Shown here in pieces: positions 9,434 to 49,162 of a stretch of 64,000 nt of DNA. The notes under the pieces were generated by a model that did no database searches, had not been told where the DNA came from, and saw only the letters and a program-made list of their open reading frames with translations. Both the position numbers and the translations under genes were made by a program. Position 1 is the stretch's first letter; every line of letters starts with the position of its first letter. The DNA comes from Brevundimonas vancanneytii (lineage in GTDB: Bacteria; Bacteroidota; Bacteroidia; Chitinophagales; Chitinophagaceae): the NCBI GenBank assembly GCA_943368425.1, contig CALRLC020000006.1, positions 47,893 through 111,892 of the forward strand. Reading direction: 5' to 3'.

Positions 9434-11641
9434 ATGAAAACATGGATGATTGCCCTGATGATCGTACTACTTATAAGCGGTATTCAGGCACAGGTTAGAG
9501 TAACTGGTTCTGTAAAAGATCAAAAAGGTAGAATTCTGGCAGGAGCCAATATTGTTGTAAAAGGGTCTTATGATGGAGGTGTATCAGATTCTACCGGTGG
9601 TTTTTCTTTCAAAACTTATGAGAAAGGAAAACAATTCATTGTTGCGAGTAGCATTGGAAATAAAACAGTAGAACAAGAAGTAAACATAGATTCTCTTCCT
9701 ATTGAAATTGATTTTATCCTCAAAGAAGAGATCAGCGAACTCAAAGCAGTAACCGTTACAGCCGGAAGTTTTGAAGCAGGCGATAAAAAAAGAGCCGCTA
9801 CCGTATTAAGTTCTTTAGATGTGTATACAACAGGAGGTGCCAACGCTGATATTTCTGCGGTGGTAAAAACTTTACCGGGTGCACAACAGGTCGGCGAACA
9901 AGAAGGATTGTTTGTACGTGGTGGTGCGGGTTATGAAGCCAAACAATTTATCGATGGAACATTAGTGAACAATCCATTCTTTGCCAGTGTACCTGATATC
10001 GCTTCACGTGGACGTTTTGCTCCGGCACTTTTTAAAGGAACTGTATTCAGTACAGGAGGCTATTCAGCTTTGTACGGACAAGCACTCTCTTCCGCACTCA
10101 TCATGGAAAGTATTGATATTCCTGATCGTTCAGAAGTATCTGCATCTATCTCATCCGTATTTCTTGGAGCCGGTTTACAAAAAGTAGCAAAAGATAAAAA
10201 GTCTTCTTGGGGTGGCAACTATGGTTATACCAACCTTCTTCCTTACTTCAGTATTGTCAAACAAAAACCTGATTATTTCCGTATGCCTGAGTTTCATACT
10301 GCAGATCTCAACTTCCGTATGAAAACCAAAAACGGTGGTATGATCAAATACTATGGAACTTTTGGAGCGAGTGATCTTGGTTTACGTAGACCGAATATCG
10401 ATGACCCTAATTTGAAGAACGCTTTTGGTCTGAATAATATCAACGTATATAACAATCTCAGTTGGAGAGAAAACCTGGGGAATGGCTGGAAAATGAACCT
10501 GGGATTGGGTTACAGCACAGACTTCAATGAGATTGATCAACAAATACAGAACCAACAAAATCAAAAGATCACAACCGGACAGTCTTGGATTGATAATAAT
10601 AATTTCTTGATCAACACACGCTCAGACTTATCGCAGATCAAAGCTGTTTTTGATAAAAGATTAAGTGGTATCAGTGTCTTGCGTATGGGTGGTGAATACA
10701 TGTACTTCTATAATCGCAGTACATTCAATAACCAGACCGCAACATTACCTGACCACTTCAAAGCCATATTCTCAGAAGCGGATCTCTATATTACCAATGA
10801 TCTGGCAGCAAAAGTAGGAGCGCGTTTTGAACATTCTTCTTTGATCAATAAAGCCAATATTGCTCCACGTTTATCATTGGCATACAAAACTGGTAAAGGT
10901 GCGCAGATGAGTATTGCATACGGTGAGTTTTATCAGAAACCGGAAAACAATTATCTATATGCAACTACCAACTTTGGTTATGCCAAAGCCACACACTTTA
11001 TAGCAAACTATATTAAGAACACTGCTTTACAAACATTTCGCGTAGAAGCATTTTACAAGAAATATGATGGACTGGTAAAAACACATCCTTCATTTAACAA
11101 TGCAGGGGCCGGTGATGCAAAAGGAGTAGAATTATTCTGGAGAGATAAAAAAACATTCAAAGGGTTGGATTATTGGGTTAGTTATTCTTACCTAGATACT
11201 AAAAGAGATTTTTTGAATTATCCCAAACAACTGCAACCAACATTCGCAGCCAATCATACTGCCTCTTTTGTGATGAAGCGGTTCATCAGCAAGATCAATA
11301 CTGGATTCAATTTCACGTATTCTTATGCTACCGGTCGTCCGTACTATCATTTGGTGCAAAATGGGGCACAGTTCACCATTGCTGACCAAGGTAAAACGAT
11401 CGATTATCACAATCTCGGATTCAGCTTTAACTACCTGACCTCATTAGGAAAAGCTTATGCAGTACTAGTTGGATCAGTTACCAATGTGCTGAACAGCAAA
11501 CAAATATTCGGATACAATTACTCTTACAACGGACAAAGAAAAGAAGCCATCACCCCTCCGGCACCACAATTCTTTTTCTTAGGTGTATTCCTGAGTTGGG
11601 GAGTGGATAGAAGACAAGATGCTATAAATAATAATTTATAA
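9434..11641 (+). CDS. TonB-dependent outer-membrane receptor with an N-terminal carboxypeptidase-regulatory-like domain
   Basis: Signal peptide; VTGSVKD...GANIVVKG beta-sandwich; plug motifs (LPGAQQ, LFVRGG, FIDG); alternating beta-barrel pattern. Confidence 0.85.
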   Translation: MKTWMIALMIVLLISGIQAQVRVTGSVKDQKGRILAGANIVVKGSYDGGVSDSTGGFSFKTYEKGKQFIVASSIGNKTVEQEVNIDSLPIEIDFILKEEISELKAVTVTAGSFEAGDKKRAATVLSSLDVYTTGGANADISAVVKTLPGAQQVGEQEGLFVRGGAGYEAKQFIDGTLVNNPFFASVPDIASRGRFAPALFKGTVFSTGGYSALYGQALSSALIMESIDIPDRSEVSASISSVFLGAGLQKVAKDKKSSWGGNYGYTNLLPYFSIVKQKPDYFRMPEFHTADLNFRMKTKNGGMIKYYGTFGASDLGLRRPNIDDPNLKNAFGLNNINVYNNLSWRENLGNGWKMNLGLGYSTDFNEIDQQIQNQQNQKITTGQSWIDNNNFLINTRSDLSQIKAVFDKRLSGISVLRMGGEYMYFYNRSTFNNQTATLPDHFKAIFSEADLYITNDLAAKVGARFEHSSLINKANIAPRLSLAYKTGKGAQMSIAYGEFYQKPENNYLYATTNFGYAKATHFIANYIKNTALQTFRVEAFYKKYDGLVKTHPSFNNAGAGDAKGVELFWRDKKTFKGLDYWVSYSYLDTKRDFLNYPKQLQPTFAANHTASFVMKRFISKINTGFNFTYSYATGRPYYHLVQNGAQFTIADQGKTIDYHNLGFSFNYLTSLGKAYAVLVGSVTNVLNSKQIFGYNYSYNGQRKEAITPPAPQFFFLGVFLSWGVDRRQDAINNNL

Positions 11642-11710
11642 GCCTCAAGCTGCAAGCTACAGGCGACAAGTAAGAATCAAATCAAAGATCAAAAAATCAA
11701 AAAATCAAAC
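11641..11710. repeat. Solo arms of two families in tandem: AAGCTRC heptamers and the ATCAA(A/G) 7-8-mer array
   Basis: AGCCTCA-AGCTGCA-AGCTACA-GGCGACA at 11641-11668, then aatcaaatcaaagatcaaaaaatcaaaaaatcaaac at 11675-11710. Confidence 0.7.
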
Positions 11711-16873: not shown

Positions 16874-17569
16874 ATGAGAACACTCATCATACTAATTTTC
16901 ACTTTTCACTTTTCCCTTTTCACTTCTTCTGCCCAAGATATGACCTCTTTGGTGATGAAAGTCAAAGCCAAACTCGATCAGGTCAATGATTATGAAGCAG
17001 ACGGTAGAATGAAAACAGATGTGGCCTTTATCAAAGCGCCAGTTGGCAAAGTCAAGATCTATTTCAAGAAACCAGATAAATTTCGTCTGAAAAAAGACGG
17101 AGGAATATCATTGCTGCCGAAAGGTGGTGTTTCTGTGAATATGAATTCAATTGTAACCACAGATCAGTTCGTTGCGTTGGCAGCCGGAGAAGCAATGGTG
17201 GGAGGAATAAAAACCAAAGTGGTGAAAATGCTTCCGGTGAATGAAAACAGTGATGTGGTGCTTACAACTATGTATATCGACGAAGCCAATTTACTGGTTC
17301 GAAAAGCTGTGACCACAACGAAAGAAAATGGTACTTATGAAATTGAAATGAGCTACGGAAAATTTGCCAGCTTCGGATTACCTGATAAGGTCACTTTTAG
17401 CTTTAATACCAAGAATTACAAATTACCCAAAGGACTTACTTTAGAATTCGATGACAATGAAAAGCCACTCACTGAAGAACAAAAATTGAAGAATAAAAAG
17501 GGTAGGGTGGAAATTGTATATACGAATTATGCGATCAACAAAGGAATCGCTGATGCCATCTTCAAGTAA
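16874..17569 (+). CDS. Secreted LolA-like (lipoprotein carrier fold) protein
   Basis: Signal peptide; GKVKIYFKKPDKFRL and MYIDEANLLVRK resemble LolA-like beta-sheet motifs. Confidence 0.6.
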   Translation: MRTLIILIFTFHFSLFTSSAQDMTSLVMKVKAKLDQVNDYEADGRMKTDVAFIKAPVGKVKIYFKKPDKFRLKKDGGISLLPKGGVSVNMNSIVTTDQFVALAAGEAMVGGIKTKVVKMLPVNENSDVVLTTMYIDEANLLVRKAVTTTKENGTYEIEMSYGKFASFGLPDKVTFSFNTKNYKLPKGLTLEFDDNEKPLTEEQKLKNKKGRVEIVYTNYAINKGIADAIFK

Positions 17570-27905: not shown

Positions 27906-28013
27906 AAGTCAAAGGGGAAAAGTGAAAGGTGAAGAGGGGTATTTCTGATGTATGAATGTGCTCTTGCTAGTAGATTTATTCTGTGATTTGACTTTTCACC
28001 TTTCACTTTTCAC
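27906..28013. repeat. AAAGTGA-family inverted-arm element, empty
   Basis: aagtcaaaggggaaaagtgaaaggtgaa ... tttgacttttcacctttcacttttcact, between divergent genes. Confidence 0.7.
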
Positions 28014-28026
28014 TATTTTCATCCCC

Positions 28027-28593
28027 ATGGCAAAAGATGAGATCATTTTAGGGATCGATCCGGGCACCCAATTGATGGGATATGCATTATTGCGTATTCA
28101 TAAAGGTCAACCTCAGGTTCTTTTAATGGATGTTCTTAAACTCACCAAAGAAAAAGACATTTATGCACGTCTTGAAATGATCCATACCCGGGTATGTGAA
28201 CTGGTTAAATTGTACAAACCATCTACTTTCGCTATTGAAGCTCCTTTTTTTGGAAAGAATGTTCAAAGTATGCTAAAGTTGGGCAGGGCACAAGGTGTGG
28301 CTATTGCCGCAGCGATGCAAGCCGGATTGAATGTTACAGAATATTCACCCAAAAAAGTAAAACAATCCATCACCGGTAATGGCAATGCAGATAAGGAGCA
28401 GATCTGGAAGATGCTGCAAAGAATTTTACAGATCGAAGAAAAACCGCAATACTTTGATGCGACGGATGCTTTAGCTGTTGCACTCTGTCATCATTATCAA
28501 TCATCTTCACCTCTTATTCAAAAAGGTAAACCTTTAAAAGGGTGGGAAGATTTTTTAAATAAAAATCCGGAGAGGGTGAAGAAGAAATCTTAG
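28027..28593 (+). CDS. ruvC: Holliday junction resolvase RuvC
   Basis: ILGIDPG, FAIE, KLGRAQGVA, KVKQSITGNG and DATDALAVALCH motifs. Confidence 0.95.
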   Translation: MAKDEIILGIDPGTQLMGYALLRIHKGQPQVLLMDVLKLTKEKDIYARLEMIHTRVCELVKLYKPSTFAIEAPFFGKNVQSMLKLGRAQGVAIAAAMQAGLNVTEYSPKKVKQSITGNGNADKEQIWKMLQRILQIEEKPQYFDATDALAVALCHHYQSSSPLIQKGKPLKGWEDFLNKNPERVKKKS

Positions 28594-28642
28594 ATGTCAG
28601 ATATAATATCAAATCTGACATCTAAGATTTGACATCTGAAAT
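28591..28642. repeat. AGATGTC-family inverted repeat between convergent ruvC and uppP
   Basis: Perfect 12-bp stem tagatgtcagat/atctgacatcta, plus a further tttgacatctgaaat copy. Confidence 0.65.
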
Positions 28643-29439
28643 CATTTCAAGTATCCCGTCAACACCAATACCAACAAAATCGTTCCACCAATAACACGAT
28701 ACCAGCCAAATAGGCGGAAGCCATGTTTTTGAAGAAAGCCGATGAAGAATTTGATGGCTAGCATGGCTACAATAAATGCTACAACATTACCTACAGCCAA
28801 TGCAATAAGGTTATCGGTATTCGTAAGCATTTCAGGAGTTTCTTTCCAGGCTTTCAATAATTTATAACCTGTGGCTGCCGCCATCGTTGGTACGGCGAGG
28901 AAAAAAGAAAATTCAGCTGCAAGATTTCTGGTTAACTTTTGTTGCATACCTCCAATGATACTGGCAGCACTTCTGCTAACACCGGGTATCATGGCCACAC
29001 ATTGCCAAAATCCGATCATCAATGCGCGACCAAAACTCACTTCTTGTTCTTTTTCAATAATCGGCTGCTGAAATAATTTATCAATAAACAGAAGTACAAA
29101 GCCTCCTGCAAGCATCGTAATAGCAACCGTTAGGGGACTTTCTAATAATGCATCAATCTTGTCAGAGAACAATGCACCCAATCCCAATGCAGGAATAACA
29201 GCCACCAATAATTTCAGATAAAAATTCCATCTGTTAAGAGGGAAGAACTTTTTATGATACAAGACTACCACCGATAGTATGGCACCCAGTTGAATCGCAA
29301 CCTCAAACAACTTGGTAAAATCATCTTTTGCAATTCCCAAAAAAGAACTGGCAATGATCATATGCCCGGTAGATGATACCGGTAAAAATTCAGTCAATCC
29401 TTCAACAATCGCAATAATGATAGCGTCGAAAATACTCAT
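28642..29439 (-). CDS. uppP: Undecaprenyl-diphosphatase
   Basis: [28 protein letters not shown] and [10 protein letters not shown] motifs. Confidence 0.95.
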
Positions 29440-29465
29440 GGGAGGGAGGTTGGTGAGCGTAGCAA

Positions 29466-29533
29466 ATAGTTAATAGCTTATGGCTCATAGCAAAAGATAT
29501 ACTATTCGCTATGAACCATAAGCATTAGGCTAT
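29466..29533. repeat. ATAGCTT/ATGGCTC-family heptamer inverted-arm element, empty
   Basis: ATAGTTA-ATAGCTT-ATGGCTC-ATAGC, spacer aaaagatata, then ctattcg-ctatgaa-ccataag-cattagg-ctat. Confidence 0.7.
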
Positions 29534-29766
29534 TTCTTCTTAAAAATCGCAAAGATCTCAATCGCCAAGCCAATCACGATGAGTATGGGAGCGATAGTAA
29601 TGCGAGTCGTACCGTATACTTCTTTGTAGTCAAATACATTTGGATCACTGCTCTTGCCACCACTCATTAAAAAGAATCCGATTGCAATAATCACAGCGCC
29701 AATGATCATCCACTTATAATTCTCTTTCGTAAAAAGCGGGCTCATGGTATTTTTTGTTTCACTCAT
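29530..29766 (-). CDS. DUF3098 small membrane protein
   Basis: LFTKENYKWM, GFFLMSGG and RITIAPIL motifs; lies downstream of ftsX as usual in Bacteroidota. Confidence 0.85.
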   Translation of the reverse strand: MSETKNTMSPLFTKENYKWMIIGAVIIAIGFFLMSGGKSSDPNVFDYKEVYGTTRITIAPILIVIGLAIEIFAIFKKK

Positions 29767-29780
29767 GGGAGTTGTTTTTT

Positions 29781-29862
29781 AGTGAATAGGAATAGTGAGT
29801 AGTGAATAGTGAGTAGTGAGTATTTGGTTTCTTACTCACGACTCACTATTCACTTCTCACTA
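29781..29862. repeat. AGTGAGT-family inverted-arm element, empty
   Basis: agtgaat/agtgagt arrays at 29781-29822; inverted tactcac-gactcac-tattcac-ttctcac-ta at 29833-29862. Confidence 0.8.
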
Positions 29863-31009: not shown

Positions 31010-33826
31010 ATGGAATACAATTTCAGGGACATTGAAAAGAAATGGCAGAAAGAATGGACTGATACCCATGCCTATCAGGTAAAGAATGACAGCACTAAGC
31101 CTAAATATTATGTGCTGGATATGTTCCCTTATCCGAGTGGAGCTGGATTGCATGTTGGGCATCCGCTAGGTTATATTGCTTCGGATATCGTAAGCCGTTT
31201 CAAAAGGCTCAAAGGTTTCAATGTATTACACCCTATGGGTTATGATGCGTTTGGCTTACCTGCTGAACAATATGCATTGGAGCATGGTGTACATCCTGCA
31301 AAAAGTACCGCCCAGAATATTGATAATTTCAGAAAGCAGTTAGACAATATCGGATTCAGTTATGATTGGAATCGTGAAGTACGAACCTGTGATGCTGATT
31401 ACTATAAATGGACCCAATGGATATTCCTTCAACTCTTCAATAGTTTCTACGATCGTCACCAACAAAAAGCTGTGGCGATTAGTGAACTGATCAACTCTTT
31501 TGAGCAAGAAGGAAACACAAAACATATTTGTCCGGGTAACCCTACGCTGGAATTTACTGCTGAAGCATGGAAAGCTTTTTCTGAAAAGGAACAGCAAGAT
31601 ATTCTGATGGATTATCGTCTTGCTTTTTGTGGTTATGGTGAAGTGAACTGGTGTGAGGCCTTGGGAACTGTATTGGCCAATGATGAAGTAGTGAATGGTG
31701 TGAGTGAACGTGGCGGGCATCCTGTTGTAAAAAAGAAATTGCGTCAGTGGTATTTACGTATCACTGAATATGCTGATCGTTTGTTAAGCGGACTTGATAC
31801 CATCGAGTTCAGCGAAGCGATGAAAGAAATGCAGACGAATTGGATCGGTAAATCTTCGGGAGCGGAGATTAGCTTCAAGCTTCAGGCTGCAAGCCACAAG
31901 CAAGAGCAATCAAGCTTGCAGCTTGAAGCTAGCAGCTTGGAGCTCCTCGTCTACACTACCCGTCCCGATACCATTTTCGGTGTAGACTTTATGGTGGTGG
32001 CGCCGGAGCATGAATTGATCGAAAAAATTACAACAGCTGAGCAGAAAGAAGCTGTAGAGGCATATATCACTTATGTAAAAAGCAGGAGCGATAGAGAGCG
32101 TCAGGCCGAGAAAAAAAATACGGGATGTTTTACAGGAGCTTATGCCATCAATCCTTTTGATGGAAGAGAGATTCCGGTATGGATATCAGAATATGTACTC
32201 GCAGGTTATGGAACGGGAGCTATCATGGCCGTTCCTTGTGGCGATGAAAGGGATTTCAAATTTGCTAAGCATTTCAATATTCCTGTCACCAATATCATAG
32301 GTGATGCATTTGATGGAACAGATGCCAATCCAACCAAAGATGCAGTGCTGAGCAATAGCGGATTTTTGAATGGCATGAAAATGCGCAATGCCATTGAAGT
32401 GGTGATTGAGAAGTTAGAAGCCATGGGTATCGGCAAACGCAAAGTGAATTACAAAATGCGTGATGCGGCTTTCAGTCGCCAGCGTTATTGGGGTGAACCA
32501 TTTCCGATCGTTTGGCAGGATGGTATTGCGTATCCATTGGATGAGAAAGAATTACCACTCTTATTACCCGATGTAGAGAGTTATGGTCCGGGGCCGGATG
32601 GAGAAGGGCCACTAGCCAATTTGAGTGATTGGAAGAGCACAACTTACAATGGTAAACCCGCAGTGCGTGAAACCAATACCATGCCCGGTTATGCAGGTAG
32701 CAGTTGGTATTTCCTGCGTTATATGGATCCTAACAATGAACAGGCATTTTGCGATAAGAAGGTCAGTGATTATTGGAATCAGGTAGATCTGTATATCGGT
32801 GGAACAGAACATGCGGTTGGACATTTATTGTACAGCCGTATGTGGACCAAAGCCTTGTATGACTTAGGTTATATAGGATTTGATGAACCGTTTAGGAAAT
32901 TGTTGAATCAGGGGATGATACAAGGGAGTAGTAGGTTTGTGTATCGAAAAAAAGGGACGCAGACTTTTGTTTCCTCAAACCTAAAGCAAGATATAGAAGT
33001 AGATGAGTTACACGTTGATGTCAACATTGTGGATGGTGTTGAATTAGATATTGACGCTTTCAAGAAATGGCGCAATGGTGAATATGCCAATGCTGAATTT
33101 ATTTTAGAAGATGGCAAATACATCTGCGGCGTTGAAGTCGAAAAAATGTCCAAATCCAAATTCAACACTGTAAATCCGGATACATTGGTGGAGAAGTTTG
33201 GTGCCGATACTTTCCGCATGTACGAAATGTTCCTCGGTCCTGTTGATCAAAGCAAACCATGGGATACCAAGGGTATTGAAGGGGTACATCGTTTCCTGAA
33301 AAAATTATGGCGTTTATTTTTTGATGAGAACAAAGGAAAGATCTGGACGGATGAACAACCCACTGCGGAAGAATTGAAAGTATTACATCGCACCATCAAA
33401 AAAATTGATGACGATACAGAACGTTATAGTTTCAATACAGCTGTGAGCAGCTTTATGATTTGTGTGAATGAATTGAGTGATCTGAAGTGTCATAAAAAAC
33501 AAATCCTTCAGGATGTATTGATTCTCTTGACTCCCTATGCGCCACATATTGCAGCGGAACTCTGGAAGCAATTGGGTAATGAAGGATCTGTACTGGATGC
33601 AAGCTTCCCGACATTCAATGCTGCGTATGTTACTGAGACAAGCAAAGAATATCCCATCAGTATCAATGGTAAAACACGTACCAATATTTCCATTGCATTG
33701 GATGCTACGGAAGATCAGGTAAAAGAGATCGTTCTCTCCAATGAGTTAGTACAAAAATGGATGGAAGGAAAGCCTTTGAAGAAACTCATCTTCGTAAAAG
33801 GAAAAATGATCAATGTAGTCATATAA
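31010..33826 (+). CDS. leuS: Leucyl-tRNA synthetase
   Basis: MFPYPSGAGLHVGH, TTRPDT editing motif and KMSKS. Confidence 0.98.
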   Translation: MEYNFRDIEKKWQKEWTDTHAYQVKNDSTKPKYYVLDMFPYPSGAGLHVGHPLGYIASDIVSRFKRLKGFNVLHPMGYDAFGLPAEQYALEHGVHPAKSTAQNIDNFRKQLDNIGFSYDWNREVRTCDADYYKWTQWIFLQLFNSFYDRHQQKAVAISELINSFEQEGNTKHICPGNPTLEFTAEAWKAFSEKEQQDILMDYRLAFCGYGEVNWCEALGTVLANDEVVNGVSERGGHPVVKKKLRQWYLRITEYADRLLSGLDTIEFSEAMKEMQTNWIGKSSGAEISFKLQAASHKQEQSSLQLEASSLELLVYTTRPDTIFGVDFMVVAPEHELIEKITTAEQKEAVEAYITYVKSRSDRERQAEKKNTGCFTGAYAINPFDGREIPVWISEYVLAGYGTGAIMAVPCGDERDFKFAKHFNIPVTNIIGDAFDGTDANPTKDAVLSNSGFLNGMKMRNAIEVVIEKLEAMGIGKRKVNYKMRDAAFSRQRYWGEPFPIVWQDGIAYPLDEKELPLLLPDVESYGPGPDGEGPLANLSDWKSTTYNGKPAVRETNTMPGYAGSSWYFLRYMDPNNEQAFCDKKVSDYWNQVDLYIGGTEHAVGHLLYSRMWTKALYDLGYIGFDEPFRKLLNQGMIQGSSRFVYRKKGTQTFVSSNLKQDIEVDELHVDVNIVDGVELDIDAFKKWRNGEYANAEFILEDGKYICGVEVEKMSKSKFNTVNPDTLVEKFGADTFRMYEMFLGPVDQSKPWDTKGIEGVHRFLKKLWRLFFDENKGKIWTDEQPTAEELKVLHRTIKKIDDDTERYSFNTAVSSFMICVNELSDLKCHKKQILQDVLILLTPYAPHIAAELWKQLGNEGSVLDASFPTFNAAYVTETSKEYPISINGKTRTNISIALDATEDQVKEIVLSNELVQKWMEGKPLKKLIFVKGKMINVVI
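31871..31944. repeat. AAGCTRC-family inverted-arm element lying in frame inside leuS
   Basis: aagcttc-aggctgc-aagccac-aagc ... gcttgca-gcttgaa-gctagca-gcttg; encodes SFKLQAASHKQEQSSLQLEASSLEL. Confidence 0.8.
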
Positions 33827-33894
33827 TTTCAGTGCTCTTCTGTGTATTCAGTGGCAATAAATAATGCCACTGAACACACAGAGAAACAGAGAAA
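33827..33894. repeat. Nonamer-period inverted repeat (cagtggca/tgccactg family) between convergent leuS and the SbtA-like gene
   Basis: tttcagtgctcttctgtgtattcagtggca-ataaataa-tgccactgaacacacagagaaacagagaaa. Confidence 0.75.
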
Positions 33895-33899
33895 AGTAT

Positions 33900-34856
33900 T
33901 TATACAATCACACAATAATACAAAGGCATCCCAACTGTAATATTGATGGGGAAAGTAACTGCCAATGTCATCGGTAAGAATAATCCCGGATTGGCTTGTG
34001 GTGCTGCTATTTTCATAGCAGCGGGTACAGCGATATAGGAAGCACTCGCCGCAAGAATTGCCAGCACAAATCGATTTGATACATCAGGTGTTACAAACTG
34101 GCTCAACCATGCTGCTGCAATACCATTGAACAGCGGAACGCAAATTGCGAATGCAAATGGGAACCAACCAAATCCAAACAGTGATTTTAATTTCCTTCCG
34201 CTGGTAATACCCATATCCAATAAAAAGATGGCCAGAAAACCTTTGAATAGGTCATTGGTAAAAGGCTTGATATCTTCTGCCTGTTTATTGTTGGCCAGAA
34301 AACCAATGATCAAACTTCCCAGGATCAACAATACGCTACCATTGGTAATGGCATGCTTGGCAACGGATCTTTTTGAAAACTCATTCGATTCGGTAGTAGA
34401 GAAAAATGAAATCAGTAAAAGTCCAATGATGATCGCTGGTGATTCCATGAGAGCCATCACGGCAACCATGTATCCGTGTAAATGCAATTGTTGCTGTTCA
34501 AGATAGGAAGTAGCGGTTACAAAAGTTACGGCACTTACAGACCCATAAGCAGCAGCAATAGCACCTGCATCAAACACATTGAATTTCTTTTTCAGGATGA
34601 AAAAAGTATACAATGGAATGATCAACGAAATAGCGATTCCAGATAACATCAGCCAAATGATCTCACTCGTAAGTACTTCATGAGAGAGTTCTTGTCCACC
34701 CCTGAACCCAATGGCAAATAGCAGGTACAGTGAAATGAACTTGGAGGAGTTCGGTGGAATTTCAAGATCGCTCTTCAGCAGTACTGCTACAATACCAAGA
34801 ACAAAAAATAAAAGTGCAGGGTTGGTTAAATTTTCAAGTAAAAGATCAAAATTCAT
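33900..34856 (-). CDS. SbtA-like sodium-dependent bicarbonate transporter family permease (DUF897/Sbt_1)
   Basis: KSDLEIP...SKFISLYLLFAIGFRGG, AAAYGSVSAVTF, MESPAII, SASYIAVPAA and FPINITVGMPLY motifs. Confidence 0.88.
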   Translation of the reverse strand: MNFDLLLENLTNPALLFFVLGIVAVLLKSDLEIPPNSSKFISLYLLFAIGFRGGQELSHEVLTSEIIWLMLSGIAISLIIPLYTFFILKKKFNVFDAGAIAAAYGSVSAVTFVTATSYLEQQQLHLHGYMVAVMALMESPAIIIGLLLISFFSTTESNEFSKRSVAKHAITNGSVLLILGSLIIGFLANNKQAEDIKPFTNDLFKGFLAIFLLDMGITSGRKLKSLFGFGWFPFAFAICVPLFNGIAAAWLSQFVTPDVSNRFVLAILAASASYIAVPAAMKIAAPQANPGLFLPMTLAVTFPINITVGMPLYYCVIV

Positions 34857-34907
34857 GAACGTATCTGGATAAATGAAAAAAAGGAATGTATAGGTAGTTC
34901 TGATCAC

Positions 34908-35237
34908 TTATTGTAATTCACCTATAAAACCAATTTCAACAGCAGAACTGATCTTGATCATCTGGTTGCTCTTTTCCGCCTCTCTAATAGCTTCAGTTAC
35001 TTTTTGTAAGCTGATACGTAAAGATTCAATACGAGCCAAAGAAGCACTGTGAGGACGACCATAACGCTCCTGATGGCTGAAATTTTTCATGTTATGGAAG
35101 TTGATCTTGCTATTGTACAGATTGGTCAGAATTTCTTTAGCCTCCTCTGTAGAGAATACCCCGTCTATCAGATTGATAGTGCGAATGGGATGCTGTGTCT
35201 TAGAAGTGGGTGCTGTTGTCAGAGTTTTTGTATCCAT
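34908..35237 (-). CDS. Hypothetical 109-aa protein upstream of the SbtA-like gene
   Basis: ATG start, helical amphipathic sequence (INLIDGVFSTEEAKEILTNLYNSKINFH), co-oriented with the transporter gene. Confidence 0.65.
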   Translation of the reverse strand: MDTKTLTTAPTSKTQHPIRTINLIDGVFSTEEAKEILTNLYNSKINFHNMKNFSHQERYGRPHSASLARIESLRISLQKVTEAIREAEKSNQMIKISSAVEIGFIGELQ

Positions 35238-35295
35238 GGATTTAATTTGACCGCAAAGTTGTGTGAAAGAAGTTATAAGTATTTATATATCTTTA

Positions 35296-35310
35296 TTATG
35301 TTAATCATAA
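35296..35310. promoter_or_regulatory. Putative LysR operator (T-N11-A inverted repeat)
   Basis: TTATG-ttaat-CATAA in the divergent intergenic region; a second ATAAgtatTTAT lies nearby. Confidence 0.5.
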
Positions 35311-35319
35311 ATAATTTTT

Positions 35320-36240
35320 ATGAACTATACTTTGAACCAATTGGAAATATTCTTATCAGTCGTTAAAAACAAGAGTGTATCAAAGGCTGCGGAAGAGCTA
35401 TTTCTGACACAACCGGCGGTATCTATTCAGTTAAAAAATTTCCAGCAACAATTTGATCTGCCACTTACTGAAATGATCGGTCGAACCTTGTATATCACTG
35501 ATTTTGGCAAAGAGATAGCGGCATCAGCTCAGGAGATCATGTATCAGGTGATGGCGATCCAACATAAAATGCATGCTTATCAGGGGCAGCTGACAGGCCG
35601 ACTTAAAATATCGGTTGTATCAACCGGGAAATATGTCATGCCCTATTTTCTTTCTTCCTTCATGCGGGAAAACCAGGGTGTAACATTGGAAATGGATGTA
35701 ACGAATAAGAGTGCCGTGGTACAAAGCTTGCAAAACAATGAAGTAGATTTTGCATTGGTATCGATTCTTCCTGAAAAATTAGCAATAGAAAAAGTGGATC
35801 TATTGCAGAATAAACTTTTTCTGATAGGTAAATCAGGGCAGAAAATAAAAAACCTGCATTCAAAAGAAATTTTCGATCAATTACCATTGATTTTCCGGGA
35901 GTCCGGTTCAGGTACAAGACAAACCATGGAAAGTTTCATTCAGCGTAAACGAATCAAAGTGGCAAAAAAAATGGAGTTGACTTCTAATGAAGCTGTGAAG
36001 CAGGCTGTTTTGGCAGGGTTAGGATTTTCAATTATGCCATTGATCGGTATTCGCAATGAATTACGTAACCAAGAATTACAAATTATCCCTATTCCTGGAT
36101 TACCTATCAAAACAACTTGGAGTTTGATCTGGTTGAAGGGGAAAAAACATGCAGCTGTTGCTGCTGAACTCTTGAAATACATCAAAAAAGAAAAGTCGAA
36201 GATCGTACATGAGCAGTTTGATTGGTATGAGAAGTACTAA
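35320..36240 (+). CDS. LysR-family regulator (CbbR/CmpR-like)
   Basis: TLNQLEIF...AAEELFLTQPAVSIQLK HTH; FRESGSGTRQ and SNEAVKQAVLAGLG motifs. Confidence 0.9.
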   Translation: MNYTLNQLEIFLSVVKNKSVSKAAEELFLTQPAVSIQLKNFQQQFDLPLTEMIGRTLYITDFGKEIAASAQEIMYQVMAIQHKMHAYQGQLTGRLKISVVSTGKYVMPYFLSSFMRENQGVTLEMDVTNKSAVVQSLQNNEVDFALVSILPEKLAIEKVDLLQNKLFLIGKSGQKIKNLHSKEIFDQLPLIFRESGSGTRQTMESFIQRKRIKVAKKMELTSNEAVKQAVLAGLGFSIMPLIGIRNELRNQELQIIPIPGLPIKTTWSLIWLKGKKHAAVAAELLKYIKKEKSKIVHEQFDWYEKY

Positions 36241-36372
36241 TAAACCCTTGGTATATTAAGTCTTTTATAAAATTTTGAGGAATCCCACCCCTTTTTTTCT
36301 ACCACTCTTCCCAACCCCCTTGTAAAATAGTGGGGCTTATGTTTATCTTACCACTCCAAAACTTATTGTCCA

Positions 36373-39300
36373 ATGAAACTCATTTTTTCATTTTTAATGT
36401 CTTGCTTGTCTCTTACAGTTATAGCACAGGGCGGACAAGCTTATTTTTTATCCAATCCTGCTTTGAGTCCGGATGGTGAAACAGTGGTCTTTGCTTTTGA
36501 AGGAGATCTGTGGAAGGCTTCCGTCAAAGATGGTCAAGCCACAAGATTGACAGCAATGCAAGGTTATGAATCAAGCCCACGTATTTCACCTGATGGTAAA
36601 TGGGTAGCATTTAGTAGCAGACAACTGGGTAATGCAGATGTATATGTAATGCCATTGACGGGTGGAGAAATCAAAAGACTTACTTATCACAGTGCCAATG
36701 ATGAGGTAAATAACTGGAGTTGGGATAGTAAGAAGATCTATTTCACGTCCAATCGTATGGGACAGCAATCTGGTTTTATGGTGGCACTTACAGGAGGTAC
36801 TGCTCAGCGCTTGTTTGGGGATCATTTTTATTTATTAGATCATGGGATTGCTGAACATCCCTCCGGTGATATTTATTTCAATGATACCTGGGAAAGTTCT
36901 AATCAATTAACACGTAAACGTTACAAAGGTCCTTTCAATCCGGATATCCAATCGTACAACCCTGCTACCAAGCAGTACAAAAAACATACAGATTGGGAAG
37001 GAAAGGATTTTGGTACAACCATTGATCGTTCAGGTAAAGTTTATTTTATTTCAGATGAAGCCAATGGAGAGTATAACCTCTATACAATAGATGGAGGAAA
37101 GAAAACAGCATTAACAAGATTCAATACATCTATTAAAACACCACTTGTAAATGCCAATGGTAACAAGATTGTATTTGAAAAAGATTATCAGCTATGGCTA
37201 TATGACGTTAGTGCTAAGAAAGCCGAAAAATTAAACATCAATCTGGTTCGTAACTATGTTTTACCTGTTGATAAGGATTATAATGTTCGAGGTAATATCA
37301 CCAATTTAGATGTGTCACCTGATGGTAAAAAGATCGCGTTTACATCTCGTGGTGAAATTTTCGTAAGTGATGTAGATGGCAAATTTGTTCAACAGATCAA
37401 TAAAGGAAATACAGAACGTGCGAGAGAGGTAAAATGGATGAGTGATAATAAAACATTGCTATTCAATCAAACTGTTGACGGCTGGCTGAATTGGTTTACA
37501 GTAGCTGCAGATGGTAGTGCTTCTGTAAAACCAATTACGAATGAAACAAGAAATAATCGTTCTGGTGTATTGAATAAGAACAGAACTAAAATGGTATATC
37601 TGAGTGGTCGTGATGAAGTGAGATTATTGGATCTCAAAACTTGGGAAAATAAAACCATCGTGAAAGATGAGATCTGGGCTTTTCAAAACTCAGATCCCGG
37701 ATTTTCGCCCAATGATGAATATGTTTTGTTTACAGCGATCCGAAATTTTGAGCAGGATGTATTTGTATACAATATCAAAGAAAATAAAACCATCAATCTT
37801 ACCAATACAGGTGTAACAGAAGCAGGACCTGTATGGGGACCTGACGGAAAACATATCTATTTCATTTCTGCAAGAACAAAACCTTCTTATCCATTTGGAA
37901 TGCAAGACCCACGTATCTATCGCATGCCATTGGAAAAGATCGACGCACCTTATCGAAGTGATAAATATGAAGCCTTGTTCAAAACAGAAAAGAAAGATAC
38001 TTCTAAAAAAGAACCGGCTCCTATTAAAATCGATATGTCAGGTATCATGGGCAGACTGGAACAGGTAGGGCCAAATTTTGGTTCTCAATTTTTAGTGAAT
38101 GTTTTACAGAAAGGAGATAAAACCACTATTCTCTATGTAAGTAACCATGATGAAGGTAGGCCTGCTCTTTGGAAAACAGTATTAGAACCTTTTGAAGCAC
38201 CAAAAACAGAAAAGATCAATGGTGCTGATGCATTCAGTGTTGATTATGCGGAGGGCGGTGATAAGACCATGGCATTGATCAATGGTTCGATCTATAAGTT
38301 GAACATAGATGGAAATAAAGCAGATCCTGTAAACATCGTCTACACATTCAGAAGAAGTTTATCAGGTGAGTTCACACAGATGTTCAAGGAGGCCTGGGCA
38401 CATCTGAATGAGAATTTTTATGATGAAAAATTTCATGGAATTGATTGGTTGGCTACACGTAAGCGTTATGAGGCTTTCGTTCCACATGTGAATACAAGAG
38501 GAGACCTCCGAGCATTATTGGCAGATATGTTGGGAGAATTGAATTCCTCACATTTAGGGTTTAACTCATTTGGAGAGGAAGAAAATGTTCAGCTATCCAA
38601 TCGTACAATGGAAACAGGGATCATTTTTGAAAATAGTAATCCATACAAGATAAAATACATAGCAGCAAGAAGTAATGCAGACAAAGCAACTGTGGATGTA
38701 CAGGCTGGTGATGTATTAGTAAAAGTGAATGATGAAACGGTAGATCCATCTATGGATAGAAGCTACTATTTCAGTAAGCCTTCATTGGATGGAGAGATCG
38801 CACTCACTTTTAATCGAAATGGTCAGATGGTTACTACGAAAATTCATCCGCAAGCTTCATTGTTTGTGAATTTATCGGAAGAGTGGAGTGATATCAATCA
38901 GAAAAGAGTGGATGAGAAAAGCAAGAAACGTATTGCTTATCACAATATGAAAGATATGGGAGGTGGGGAGCTTGAAAAATTCCTGATCGATATGACACAG
39001 GATTTTTATCAGAAAGATGCATTGATCTTGGATTTACGTTACAATACAGGTGGTAATGTGCATGATGAAGTTTTGAAATTTCTGAGTCAGCGTTCTTATC
39101 TACAATGGAAATATCGTGAAGGCAAACTGACGCCTCAATCCAATTTCGCACCGGCTGATAAGCCAATTATTTTATTGATCAACGAGCAATCGCTGAGTGA
39201 TGCTGAGATGACAGCTCAAGGTTTTAAAGCTTTGAAATTGGGAACTATCATTGGAATGCCAACTTATCGCTGGATCATCTTCACCAGTGGAACAGGATTG

Positions 39301-40964: not shown

Positions 40965-40991
40965 GGGTGTTTTTTCAAGGCTAAGATAGGG

Positions 40992-41073
40992 TAGTGAGTA
41001 GTGAATAGTCAGTAGTGAGTAAGATATTTTATTGTTCTTAGTTTTACTCACTACTGACTATTCGCTATCTCAC
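40992..41073. repeat. AGTGAGT-family inverted-arm element, empty
   Basis: tagtgag-tagtgaa-tagtcag-tagtgag-ta, spacer containing agatattt, inverted tactcac-tactgac-tattcgc-tatctcac. Confidence 0.8.
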
Positions 41074-46325: not shown

Positions 46326-46336
46326 AAGTTCGTATT

Positions 46337-46407
46337 AGTGAGTAGTCAGTAGTGAGTAGTCAGTAGGAAAAAGATATTTATTCACTACTGACAATTCACT
46401 ACTCACT
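46337..46407. repeat. AGTGAGT-family inverted-arm element, empty (hemE/hemF junction)
   Basis: agtgagt-agtcagt-agtgagt-agtcagt, spacer ggaaaaagatattt, inverted attcact-actgaca-attcact-actcact. Confidence 0.8.
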
Positions 46408-47512: not shown

Positions 47513-48210
47513 AAATGTTGAATCGCTTTCCTCACCAGTTCTTCTTTTCCTGGTGAGTGAGCTGTGATGATTGAATTGTTTGTATATTTTTTGATGGCTG
47601 CTTCAGTAGTAGTTCCTATGGCAAAGAATACTGTTGAAGTAGCGGCTTTATTTTGATTGAAAAAACTTTCTACTGCACTCGGACTAAAAAATATAATACC
47701 ATTATAAGTAGTATCCATTTTTTGATGGAGTGGGATCGTTTTGTATACGATGATCTCTTCAACACTGATACCTTCTTCTTTTAGTTTGGCAGGTAATTCA
47801 TCTCTTCGCTGATCACCACAGAAGAAGAACACTTCATCTAATTCATCATTGTCTGATAAAATGGTTTCTGCAAGTTCTGATGCATTGTTGCCAGTGCCAC
47901 TAATAGACTGTTCTCCAAAATAGTTGTGTATCAGTTCTTGTGTTGTATTACCCATACAATAAATATTCCATTCCGGCACTTGTTGGTCTAGCATGGTGAT
48001 TACACTTTCTACAGCATTCATGCTTGTAAATACAACCGTGGCATATTGCAAAGCGATTTGTTCAACCTCCTGTTGTGTATCAATGTCCTGAACAGGTTCT
48101 GTATCGATCAAAGGAATGATATCCAACTGAATGTTTTGTTCAGCGGCTTCCTGTATCAGTGTTTCTTTTACAGGTCTGGTAGATAATATTTTCTTTTTAC
48201 TTTCCTGCAT
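47503..48210 (-). CDS. hemD: Uroporphyrinogen-III synthase
   Basis: ILSTRP, VVFTSMNAVES, VYKT, FFSPSAVESF and FAIGTTT motifs; expected operon position. Confidence 0.88.
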   Translation of the reverse strand: MQESKKKILSTRPVKETLIQEAAEQNIQLDIIPLIDTEPVQDIDTQQEVEQIALQYATVVFTSMNAVESVITMLDQQVPEWNIYCMGNTTQELIHNYFGEQSISGTGNNASELAETILSDNDELDEVFFFCGDQRRDELPAKLKEEGISVEEIIVYKTIPLHQKMDTTYNGIIFFSPSAVESFFNQNKAATSTVFFAIGTTTEAAIKKYTNNSIITAHSPGKEELVRKAIQHFSE

Positions 48211-49162
48211 TTCTGATTTCCTGTATGATTTCTTCTGCACCCATCGCTAAGATTTCTTGTCCGGCTTCTGTGCCTATTGCAGCCCCAACGGAAATAGGTA
48301 CGTTAGTGCTGATATCAACTTTCTGACGACCATCAAGAGATACCACATTGCCCTGGAAAAAAATCTGATCACCCTGTATTTGTGCGAGTGCAGAAATAGG
48401 TGTAGCGCAACCGCCCATCAACTGACGTAAAAAATTTCTTTCTGCATGCGCACAGATCGCTGTTTCGTTATGGTGTAGTTGCTGACAGCTATTGAAGATT
48501 TCAGTTTCTCCTTCTCTGCACACAACCATCACGGCACCTTGTGCCGGAGCAGGTAACATCCAATCCAAATCAATTGCTTTTTCCGGACGAAGGTTGATTC
48601 TTTCAAGTCCTGCAGCTGCAAAGATGGCACCTTGCCAATTGCTTTCATCCAGTTTACGCAGTCGGGTATTGACGTTGCCACGTAAGTTATCAAACTGATG
48701 ATTGGGATAACGATTGAGCCATTGTGCTTTACGGCGAACGCTGCTGGTGGCGAATAGTCCATGGTCCATAGTCCATGGTCTATGGACCATGGACCATTCA
48801 CCATTCACATAACCCAGCGCTTCCGGTATATCCTCTTCCTTATAAACAAGAATGTCTTTGTATGATGCACGTTTTAATACTGCAGCTTCTTGTATGCCTT
48901 TAGCAAGTTGTGTAGGCACGTCTTTCATGGAGTGAACAGCAATATCAATTTTGTTACTGAGCAATGCAGCATCTAGCGTTTTAGTGAAGATACCCTGAAC
49001 ACCGATCTCATAAAGTGGTGTAACTAGATCAATATCTCCTTCACTTTTGATGTACACGAGTTCAGAAGCCACTCCTTTTTCTTTCAGGAGTTCTTGCACC
49101 CATGTGGCTTGCCACACGGCGAGCTGACTGTCGCGTGTTCCTATACGTACTACCTTGGTCAT
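48197..49162 (-). CDS. hemC: Hydroxymethylbilane synthase (carries a repeat-derived insertion)
   Basis: RIGTRDSQLAVWQA, DIAVHSMKD, TSSVRR, RGNVNTRL and GGCATP motifs. Confidence 0.96.
   Translation of the reverse strand: MTKVVRIGTRDSQLAVWQATWVQELLKEKGVASELVYIKSEGDIDLVTPLYEIGVQGIFTKTLDAALLSNKIDIAVHSMKDVPTQLAKGIQEAAVLKRASYKDILVYKEEDIPEALGYVNGEWSMVHRPWTMDHGLFATSSVRRKAQWLNRYPNHQFDNLRGNVNTRLRKLDESNWQGAIFAAAGLERINLRPEKAIDLDWMLPAPAQGAVMVVCREGETEIFNSCQQLHHNETAICAHAERNFLRQLMGGCATPISALAQIQGDQIFFQGNVVSLDGRQKVDISTNVPISVGAAIGTEAGQEILAMGAEEIIQEIRNAGK
48754..48808. repeat. ATRGTCY-family inverted-arm element lying in frame inside hemC
   Basis: atagtcc-atggtcc-atagtcc-atggtct-atggacc-atggacc-attcacc-attcac; encodes VNGEWSMVHRPWTMDHGL. 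Confidence 0.82.

Follow-up and report, generated by a model that had tools for sequence, protein, structure and literature searches.

The 64,000-nt stretch of DNA considered here (the window; positions 47,893 to 111,892 of contig CALRLC020000006.1, assembly GCA_943368425.1) belongs to a genome of Sediminibacterium (Chitinophagaceae; 3.49 Mb, 38.9% G+C), which we call G000. It carries leuS, the gene for leucyl-tRNA synthetase (LeuRS), and a hairpin made of 7-nt units lies in frame within that gene. The initial annotation had described this palindromic heptamer element from the sequence of the window, and its letters and coordinates are as claimed. The gene and the parts of the element are:

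31010 to 33826, + strand: leuS, leucyl-tRNA synthetase, 938 amino acids, host gene of the element (open reading frame; solved LeuRS structures are matched at E ~1e-190)
31871 to 31944, + strand: whole in-frame heptamer hairpin, 74 nt, ~10.7 units in a single AGCTNNN register, encoding SFKLQAASHKQEQSSLQLEASSLEL
31871 to 31901, + strand: left arm, AGCTTCA AGCTTCA GGCTGCA AGCCACA AGC; the first TTC is the codon of Phe289
31902 to 31913, + strand: apical spacer of the hairpin, AAGAGCAATCAA, stop-free in the leuS frame
31914 to 31944, + strand: right arm, inverted units GCTTGC AGCTTGA AGCTAGC AGCTTGG AGCT

Written in its register, 31871-31944 is AGCTTCA AGCTTCA GGCTGCA AGCCACA AGCAAGA GCAATCA AGCTTGC AGCTTGA AGCTAGC AGCTTGG AGCT. 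The two inverted arms are 31 nt each and are 77% complementary. This rises to 88% over the 24-nt core arms (31871-31894 and 31914-31937). Tandem Repeats Finder (TRF) calls period-7 arrays at 31871-31894 and 31913-31944. As RNA the element folds at -42.9 kcal/mol against -29.7 +/- 3.2 in dinucleotide shuffles (z -4.19), and 0 of 200 shuffles are equally stable. The annotation gave the heptamer as AAGCTRC. A heptamer unit is correct, but the variable position is not restricted to R, since it is T, T, G and A here and must be written N.

When the window is searched with a two-unit pattern, AAGCTRCAAGCTRC, allowing up to 2 mismatches, there are 11 matches where 1.2 are expected and the best shuffle has 4. 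Seven of the 11 are inside the leuS element and 3 are in an arm at 11640-11667. The latter is the solo arm of the same family that the annotation had placed at 11641:

11640 to 11670, + strand: solo intergenic arm of the AGCT-core family, AAGCCTC AAGCTGC AAGCTAC AGGCGAC AAG, directly after a stop codon

It has no inverted partner within ~3 kb. A terminator or attenuator is rejected for the leuS hairpin, as no T-run follows the stem. Rfam gives only sub-threshold matches to microRNA precursors, which says merely that this is a generic hairpin. An assembly artefact is excluded because the element recurs in independent assemblies.

The insert at the entry to the editing domain

The host protein is a bacterial LeuRS. 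It matches solved structures over its full length, its TTRPDT editing motif is intact, and the core of its CP1 domain is modelled with a predicted local distance difference test score (pLDDT) of ~90. The leuS orthologues of congeners are 79% identical. Translation of the open reading frame places SFKLQAASHKQEQSSLQLEASSLEL between WIGKSSGAEI and LVYTTRPDT, and the frame across the element reads ...NWIGKSSGAEISFKLQAASHKQEQSSLQLEASSLELLVYTTRPDT... The 938-residue frame runs straight through, so the description of a frame-preserving insertion in an essential gene is accurate.

Counted from NWIG to TTRPDT, this LeuRS has 45 residues and many relatives have 31. Over that baseline the net gain from the element is 14 residues, or 42 nt. 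The LeuRS of Thermus thermophilus (1H3N) has an alignment gap of 14 residues precisely at the insert, GAEILFPVE / GKEVRIPVFTTRPDT. These two comparisons bear out the claim that this is the entry to CP1 and that the linker is normally shorter. Solved structures of the Neisseria gonorrhoeae enzyme have a naturally longer loop at this position, and the CP1 domains that have been crystallised start immediately downstream of it. From the alignments at the CP1 entry it follows that the insert extends a beta-hairpin at its tip, the hairpin with which the CP1 editing domain begins.

The flanks of the insert are conserved. Phe289 is invariant in 46 orthologues and the flanking strands keep a Leu-x-Val pattern. 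An AlphaFold2 (AF2) model of the CP1 segment (predicted template modelling score, pTM, 0.71; CP1 core ~90) places strands at LeuS residues 279-293 and 311-316 and drops below a pLDDT of 50 over residues 296-306. The structure that the annotation asked for therefore has confident strands on both sides of a poorly modelled insert. The full-length AF2 model is poor (pLDDT 64.8, pTM 0.38) and we used it solely for noting strands. On these models the 14 extra residues are probably floppy. In four other lineages of Chitinophagaceae a second LeuS loop, near residue 181, bears 7-periodic inserts (L075, L106, L069, L087; lag-7 identity 0.41-0.64), and it is unoccupied in G000.

Alleles of the element and the same loop in relatives

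It is worth comparing the element with its orthologues as nucleic acid and as peptide. Against L031 the element is 60.6% identical and the rest of leuS is 92% identical (p = 3e-13), while the protein outside the loop is 97% identical. The L031 element nevertheless folds strongly, at -49.6 kcal/mol, and as compared the G000 and L031 elements fold at about -41 and -50 kcal/mol. Each AGCT core is preceded by A in G000 and by G in L031, with a complementary change in the opposite arm. RNAalifold gives 27 pairs, and 6 of these 27 are changed on both sides. The inserted peptides of the two allele classes agree at 14 of 27 residues (52%). In these alignments conservation resides in the nucleic acid and not in the peptide. 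Against L032 the relation is reversed, with the element 90.5% identical and the rest of leuS 79.5% (p = 0.009). The older inserts of L042, L057, L093 and L052 have lost the fold (z ~0).

A wider set of alleles was collected by a protein search with residues 230-345 only. It returned 120 clusters, nearly all with an AGCT-type loop. The clusters divide into 2 old allele classes. K-type alleles read SFKLQAAS...SSLQLEASSLELLV, with 27 residues and AAGCTNC units. E-type alleles read SFELRASS...SQLAAHSSKLLV, with 26 residues and GAGCTNN units. Across the 120 clusters the insert ranges from 18 to 29 residues, and its lengths include the pairs 27/20, 26/19 and 25/18. The step between members of a pair can be located in the window:

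31925 to 31945, + strand: 21-nt block GAAGCTAGCAGCTTGGAGCTC, 3 heptamers or 7 codons (EASSLEL), missing from 20-residue alleles such as that of Sediminibacterium sp. KACHI17

KACHI17 is a cultured relative, and its allele lacks precisely this block from the right arm and folds at only -14.6 kcal/mol. Since KACHI17 has a leuS with so weak a hairpin, the full hairpin must be dispensable for a working leuS. A step of 21 nt is the sole slippage step that preserves the frame. The annotation argued that the element is hard to explain as intergenic slippage alone. Its reading is supported, with the adjustment that slippage does contribute, since alleles differ by exactly 21 nt.

When the loop is left out of a tree of 113 proteins (by FastTree, on recombining genes), K and E alleles are interleaved, and well-supported branches force at least 12-14 changes of type. 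The K allele of G000 is nested among 11 E-type relatives. P0074 (E) and P0011 (K) are a near-identical pair of LeuS proteins with different alleles. They have ~0.002 differences per site outside the loop, and their contigs are a mosaic that is 95.4% identical over 14 kb. Within leuS the lone block of change is ~100-130 nt around the element, and it includes flanking synonymous sites. Each of the remaining hairpin slots has one and the same family in both, with copy number off by about one unit. A local tract of this size, beside slots that retain their families, means that shallow allele switching is short-tract homologous recombination between old alleles. Rapid genome-wide rewriting is rejected as the cause of this switch, since only the leuS tract changed. 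The G000 element itself is near-identical to that of P0003, although outside the element the leuS of G000 resembles L031 more (92% vs 88%). The insert is an old, polymorphic feature of many Sediminibacterium-like lineages and not a recent one-off.

The annotation proposed aligning LeuS from close relatives. Our loop survey covers 104 LeuS sequences, and its tree was also built without the loop by FastTree on recombining genes; many of the genomes compared are metagenome bins. The inner loop is 13 residues in many lineages, many congeners included. Long loops, with at least 6 extra residues, occur in 14 of the 104, and in 12 of those 14 the DNA is 7-periodic (lag-7 identity 0.45-0.89 vs ~0.25 at other lags). 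The loop is variable and the insert is absent in many relatives, as the annotation anticipated. What the orthologues have is either a short loop of 13 residues or a long one with 7-periodic DNA, not the equally long, conserved loop free of periodicity that would have spoken against a repeat.

At least 4 unit families have been found in the leuS loop: AGCT, CTCAC, GGAGTCG and AATCTTC. The AGCT core occupies it in G000, L031, L032, L069 and L108, and GTGAGTC/CTCACC units do so in L033, L042 and L057. L093 has a right-arm array only, which starts in the conserved Leu-Thr-Val codons (CTCACCG). There are 2 GGAGTCG units in L072, L076 and L085 and 6 in L101, and L103 has AATCTTC. On the tree without the loop, these inserts require several independent events. 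Genomes with a CTCAC-type leuS loop are rich in the family (156, 302, 57 and 11 matches) and those with decayed loops have 0-6 matches. The leuS loop is a recurrent hotspot for heptamer families across the Chitinophagaceae. One might expect the integrity of the leuS hairpin to track the abundance of its family, but this was not upheld. The stem of L042 has decayed even though its genome has 302 GTSAGT matches.

The repeat family in the genome

The leuS element is far from alone. TRF finds 746 period-7 arrays in G000, with 150 canonical units. There are 634 arrays with at least 3 copies, and 315 of these are joined in 163 inverted pairs, whose spacers have a median of 29 nt. AGCT-core arrays of period 7 account for 73 loci. 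The usual locus has 3-5 AAGCTNC units, an AT-rich loop and 3-5 inverted units, and the leuS copy is built alike. The loop is unique to each locus, and most copies of the family are intergenic. One position of the unit, position 5 (AGCT-N-C-A), is heterogeneous within every AGCT-core array, and the other 6 are homogenised. A large share of all arrays end within a few tens of bases 5' of a start codon; examples in the window are 16896-16925, 40991-41021 and 46336-46366.

The family is lineage-specific. Four AGCT cores spaced at period 7 occur 11 times per strand in G000, and a search of 30 relatives, of which 18 are congeners, gives 0. The AGCT family is present in G031 and G032, the sister genomes with which the leuS insert is shared. 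Another family, TAYTSAC, has 137 matches in G000, 24 in one distant relative and almost none in the other relatives searched.

Two kinds of gene deserve attention as possible partners of the arrays. PF05635 genes encode four-helix-bundle proteins (23S rRNA intervening sequence, or Avd-like). There are 9 in G000, 9 in G022 and 0-2 in the 18 congeners. G022 is the sole relative of the 30 searched that has many TAYTSAC arrays, and the 18 congeners are without them. Several more distant relatives have 1-6 PF05635 genes, yet no TAYTSAC arrays. The other candidate is a single PF01797 gene for a Y1 transposase (of the type of insertion sequences IS200/IS605, similar to REP-associated tyrosine transposases, RAYTs, where REP is repetitive extragenic palindrome) at C15:60765-61109 of G000. 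GC-rich palindromes (ccctccgggg / cccagagggg) recur in the ~700 nt upstream of it, whereas the nearby heptamer arrays go with a PF05635 gene. The Y1 gene and its palindromes look like a separate REP-like system that is unrelated to the heptamer arrays. We reject a RAYT as the mobiliser of the heptamer family, since the Y1 gene is flanked by a different palindrome.

Arrays are depleted from genes. With rough gene calls, 56 of the 634 arrays lie inside genes, 122 touch the end of a gene and 456 fall between genes, in a genome that is 88.6% coding. Even so, at least 10 Pfam-confirmed housekeeping genes besides leuS have in-frame arrays or whole hairpins. Five aminoacyl-tRNA synthetases are affected, leuS included. 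The internal arrays are as follows (positions in G000, except the last, which is in the window):

C1:753735-753763 and C1:754238-754263: two arrays in ValS
C6:129450-129476: array in MetG
C1:306925-306980: array in ArgS
C7:74554-74586: array in HisS
C6:125116-125144: array in NrdJ, class II ribonucleotide reductase
C14:57296-57380: array in LpxB
C10:59707-59729: array in GcvP
C4:151444-151518: array in a fused E1 dehydrogenase
C4:260225-260300: array in a PurN fusion
48754 to 48808 of the window, - strand: in-frame GTCCATG-family heptamer palindrome in hemC (HemC; Pfam porphobilinogen deaminase)

As we read the Pfam ranges, 6 of 11 internal sites are in linkers between domains. Stop codons are impossible on the left-arm strand of AAGCTNC arrays, and on the other strand they arise only for some N. 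At least one frame is open in 13 of 16 compact AAGCTNC hairpins, compared with 0 of 30 hairpins of the commonest family (ACTACTC). The high share with an open frame is due to the AAGCTNC units, which rarely yield stops.

Orthologous hairpin slots can be compared between G000 and its sisters. At intergenic sites around leuS in G031 and G032 the flanks are conserved up to the base of the stem and the contents are different. The slots compared are 27906-28014, 28588-28648, 29442-29540 and 29780-29862, plus the orthologous sites in L112 and L114. Their contents differ by unit family, by a single unit position or by copy number. One slot near leuS is ATAGCTN in G000, GTCCATG in G031 and an unrelated palindrome that is not of heptamers in G032. 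Two more are:

29780 to 29862, no strand: TAGTGAR/TACTCAC intergenic hairpin 3' of ftsX; it is GTGAATG in G031, with identical flanks
27906 to 28014, no strand: AAAGTGA/TTTCACT intergenic hairpin with a 50-nt loop; the orthologous site in G032 is a GTCCATR hairpin

Of 15 AAGCTNC slots compared elsewhere in G000, G031 retains an AGCT-core hairpin at 8, leuS counted. In 6 of these 8, A in G000 corresponds to G in G031 at the same unit position, and the opposite arm shows the complementary change. G032 has T at that position in 3 slots. One slot, C8:125076-125192 of G000 (compared with L124 and L137), has a different base ahead of the AGCT core in each genome, A in G000, G in G031 and T in G032, and the opposite arm changes to match. 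Its loop is recognisably homologous between G000 and G031. Genome-wide, AAGCT-type and GAGCT-type matches stand at 22:8 in G000, 4:26 in G031 and 36:11 in G032 (Fisher p = 5e-6); the patterns are strict, hence these counts are undercounts. It is tempting to cite the leuS subtype as independent evidence, since it matches the dominant subtype of its genome. We reject this, as any random slot is expected to match the majority.

Three other observations concern the slots and the neighbourhood of leuS. The slot at C11:38659-38757 of G000 is an empty AAGCTNC hairpin. Its orthologue L120 (G031 C2:1564-2140) has AATAAGG arms that enclose an open reading frame which by eye is PF05635-like, and in G032 an AATGTCC hairpin is nested within AACAGAGGAA arms. 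The SbtA-like transporter region beside leuS (33827-36437) is ~1.9 kb shorter or missing in G032 (C37:12778-13502). A gene for a Tricorn-like protease 3' of leuS (L139 6218-8519 vs L141) is much more diverged than its neighbours on contigs that are otherwise near-identical, a recombination mosaic.

Origin, upkeep and meaning of the element

The leuS element is one copy of a lineage-specific family of heptamer hairpins with an AGCT core, and we argue that it is probably a tolerated passenger of the selfish type that is no working part of LeuRS. Such an insert would survive where the tip of a loop is structurally permissive and where AGCT-core units seldom make stops. Selection would act as a filter for frame, for stop-free reading and for a permissive loop. 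The hairpin would be kept up at the level of DNA, by replication slippage, by correction of one arm from the other through template switching and by exchange with other copies of the family, and not through any role in LeuRS. The most likely first arrival is that a family hairpin was copied into the loop via short homologies, TTCAA (the Phe289 codon) and CTTG (a Leu codon).

Several points weigh against this explanation. The insertion has no target-site duplication and no conserved termini, and no transposase is tied to the family. Both old allele classes have kept their arms complementary, although pure neutrality would not demand this. The higher conservation of the element against L032 could hint at constraint on the hairpin itself. 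In related species the unit subtype has moved the same way at many orthologous slots scattered over the genome, and local slippage alone is insufficient for that. Gene conversion among dispersed arms over species-level time would be sufficient for the concerted shift.

One can imagine a scenario where nothing was copied in. The array would have grown from local seeds, AGCTTCAA at the Ser-Phe-Lys codons and AAGCT in the old loop, with slippage building the repeats and a strand switch making the inverted arm. In its favour, the 74-nt element overlays old strand codons and adds only 42 nt. The nearest relative with a short loop, L002, reads AGCTTCCAGGTGGAGGCCAC where G000 reads AGCTTCA(AGCTTCA)GGCTGCAAGCCAC, which is a seed-like sequence. 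Partial arrays exist too, with the right arm only in L093, two GGAGTCG units in L072, L076 and L085 and six in L101, and the loop is unique at each locus. These overlaid codons, the seed of L002 and the partial arrays of L093 and L072 favour growth in place. The match between the family in the loop and the family in the genome favours copying from the genomic pool: AGCT copies abound genome-wide in G031, G032 and G034 and GTSAGT/CTCAC copies in G040, G041 and G044, and the genomes with decayed loops have few family copies. The element also has the complete canonical anatomy of its family, whereas seeds alone would yield units specific to the locus. We consider growth in place possible but the less likely route. 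The case for a function in RNA is weaker still. Here the hairpin would help folding by holding ribosomes back where the catalytic core gives way to CP1, or would stabilise or process the leuS mRNA, and selection would keep it. Compensatory changes do preserve complementarity in both allele classes, against L032 the element has changed less than the remainder of leuS, several further in-frame arrays sit at domain boundaries and intergenic hairpin slots persist through turnover of their sequence. However, a tolerance filter predicts the placement at domain boundaries equally well. The insert is absent from many congeners, KACHI17-type alleles fold only weakly (-14.6 kcal/mol) and old inserts (L042, L057, L093, L052) have lost the fold altogether. 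There is also no U-tract and no match to an Rfam family, and we regard this function as improbable.

If RNA function is improbable, an adaptive peptide is more so. The insert would have to extend LeuRS usefully, for example as a longer beta-ribbon that contacts the tRNA or tunes the movement of the editing domain. It does sit in the CP1 hinge region, over 100 protein clusters retain it, and Phe289 and the flanking Leu-x-Val are kept. Yet the allele classes share only 14 of 27 residues in a protein that is otherwise 97% identical, the length varies from 18 to 29 residues and the models have low confidence in the insert. Many congeners and the LeuRS of Thermus do without the loop. Its composition of Q, S, L, A and E is simply what AGCT-core units encode. 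We consider an adaptive peptide very unlikely. A different kind of proposal is that the heptamer units are written or read by a system acting in trans, which would fix unit identity across the genome and refresh the leuS copy along with the others. Subtype dominance does differ among related genomes (22:8, 4:26, 36:11), A in G000 is G in G031 at 6 of 8 orthologous slots, one slot is A, G and T in 3 species and one unit position is heterogeneous within every array. There is also the distribution of PF05635 genes (9 in G000 and G022, 0-2 in 18 congeners without arrays). But several relatives have PF05635 genes and none of the arrays searched for, and no candidate enzyme has been identified. The shallow allele switch in leuS is a local recombination tract whose neighbouring slots keep their family, and gene conversion among dispersed arms, over species-level time, is a known process that would be enough. 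We think such a system unlikely. We hold out a similarly slim chance for the broader idea that heptamer-array hairpins are more than slippage debris and form a distinct, widespread class of prokaryotic repeat. A reader or writer acting in trans would set their unit identity genome-wide, perhaps in connection with the four-helix-bundle PF05635 (Avd-like) genes carried in the loops. Were it true, the copies inside leuS and other essential genes would keep pace with the family.

How does a tolerated family hairpin compare with known repeats? Rickettsia palindromic elements (RPEs) were named by the annotation as the precedent. In the account given by PMC10969869 (Ogata et al. 2000) they are ~100-150 bp, with a sequence and peptide conserved within each family, in an obligate intracellular alphaproteobacterium. 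As that account has it, RPEs are palindromic and occur both between genes and in frame in unrelated housekeeping genes, including aminoacyl-tRNA synthetases, and they are read through as an extra surface peptide that is apparently harmless to the protein (PMC10969869). The heptamer hairpins are like them in each of these ways, being in-frame palindromic repeats that are also found between genes. They differ in build. The leuS element is 74 nt and consists of tandem heptamers and their inverted copies only, with unique loops, many unit families and three-unit steps, in a free-living member of the Bacteroidota. Only the heptamer is shared between copies, and the peptide is 52% identical. RPEs are a precedent for the way the element works, but it does not belong to their family, as it has no conserved peptide and no conserved sequence of 100-150 bp.

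Heptanucleotide tandem repeats are the nearer relatives in sequence. They are described in Cyanobacteria, Beggiatoaceae and some Bacteroidetes, under names that include short tandemly repeated repetitive sequences (STRR), long simple sequence repeats (LSSR; Mrazek et al. 2007) and TAACTGA, as set out in PMC4679880. The TAACTGA repeats of Beggiatoaceae are often beside start codons, and their content of stop codons limits where they can be placed (PMC4679880). The arrays of G000 share the period of 7, the many arrays, the mostly intergenic position often by start codons, the sporadic lineages and a location dictated by stop content. Their units run head to tail in many arrays and unit families (746 arrays, 150 units). 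Length changes by whole units through slippage, as in the 21-nt allele step and the copy-number differences at orthologous intergenic sites. The difference is that the reported arrays are direct and mostly outside genes, whereas half of those in G000 are paired as hairpins and whole hairpins are found inside essential genes. We found no description of translated heptamer hairpins within essential genes in the literature searched.

REPs are GC-rich palindromes of 20-40 nt with a conserved GTAG/CGTC head that are mobilised by RAYTs, cluster around a RAYT gene and are extragenic by definition (PMC3116915, PMC3733652). Like REP and REPIN elements, the heptamer hairpins are short dispersed repeats at gene ends that evolve as a population within the genome. 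However, the lone Y1 (PF01797) gene of G000 is flanked by its own ccctccgggg-type GC-rich palindromes and not by heptamer arrays, so a REPIN-RAYT system does not account for them. Nor are they miniature inverted-repeat transposable elements. Slots that are filled and slots that are filled differently show no duplication, the flanks run into the arms and no parent insertion sequence was identified. In E. coli, template switching corrects quasipalindromes, and the two arms of an imperfect inverted repeat can be matched again by copying a mutation from one to the other. K and E alleles differ by paired arm changes of this appearance. It is a mutational mechanism and not a family of elements, and for the leuS element it is a candidate by analogy.

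Translated selfish repeats are best known from Rickettsia. The leuS element means that they also occur in free-living Bacteroidota, as hairpins of 7-base units. It is an unusually informative insert, with more than 100 public variants, three-unit steps, two old alleles, recombination and repeated colonisation of the same loop. It offers a natural system for the origin of short repeats and the upkeep of hairpins, for loops that tolerate random peptide and for the concerted evolution of dispersed repeats. It is also a warning for annotation. Odd low-complexity loops in the conserved enzymes of these lineages are repeat DNA and should not be taken for functional motifs.

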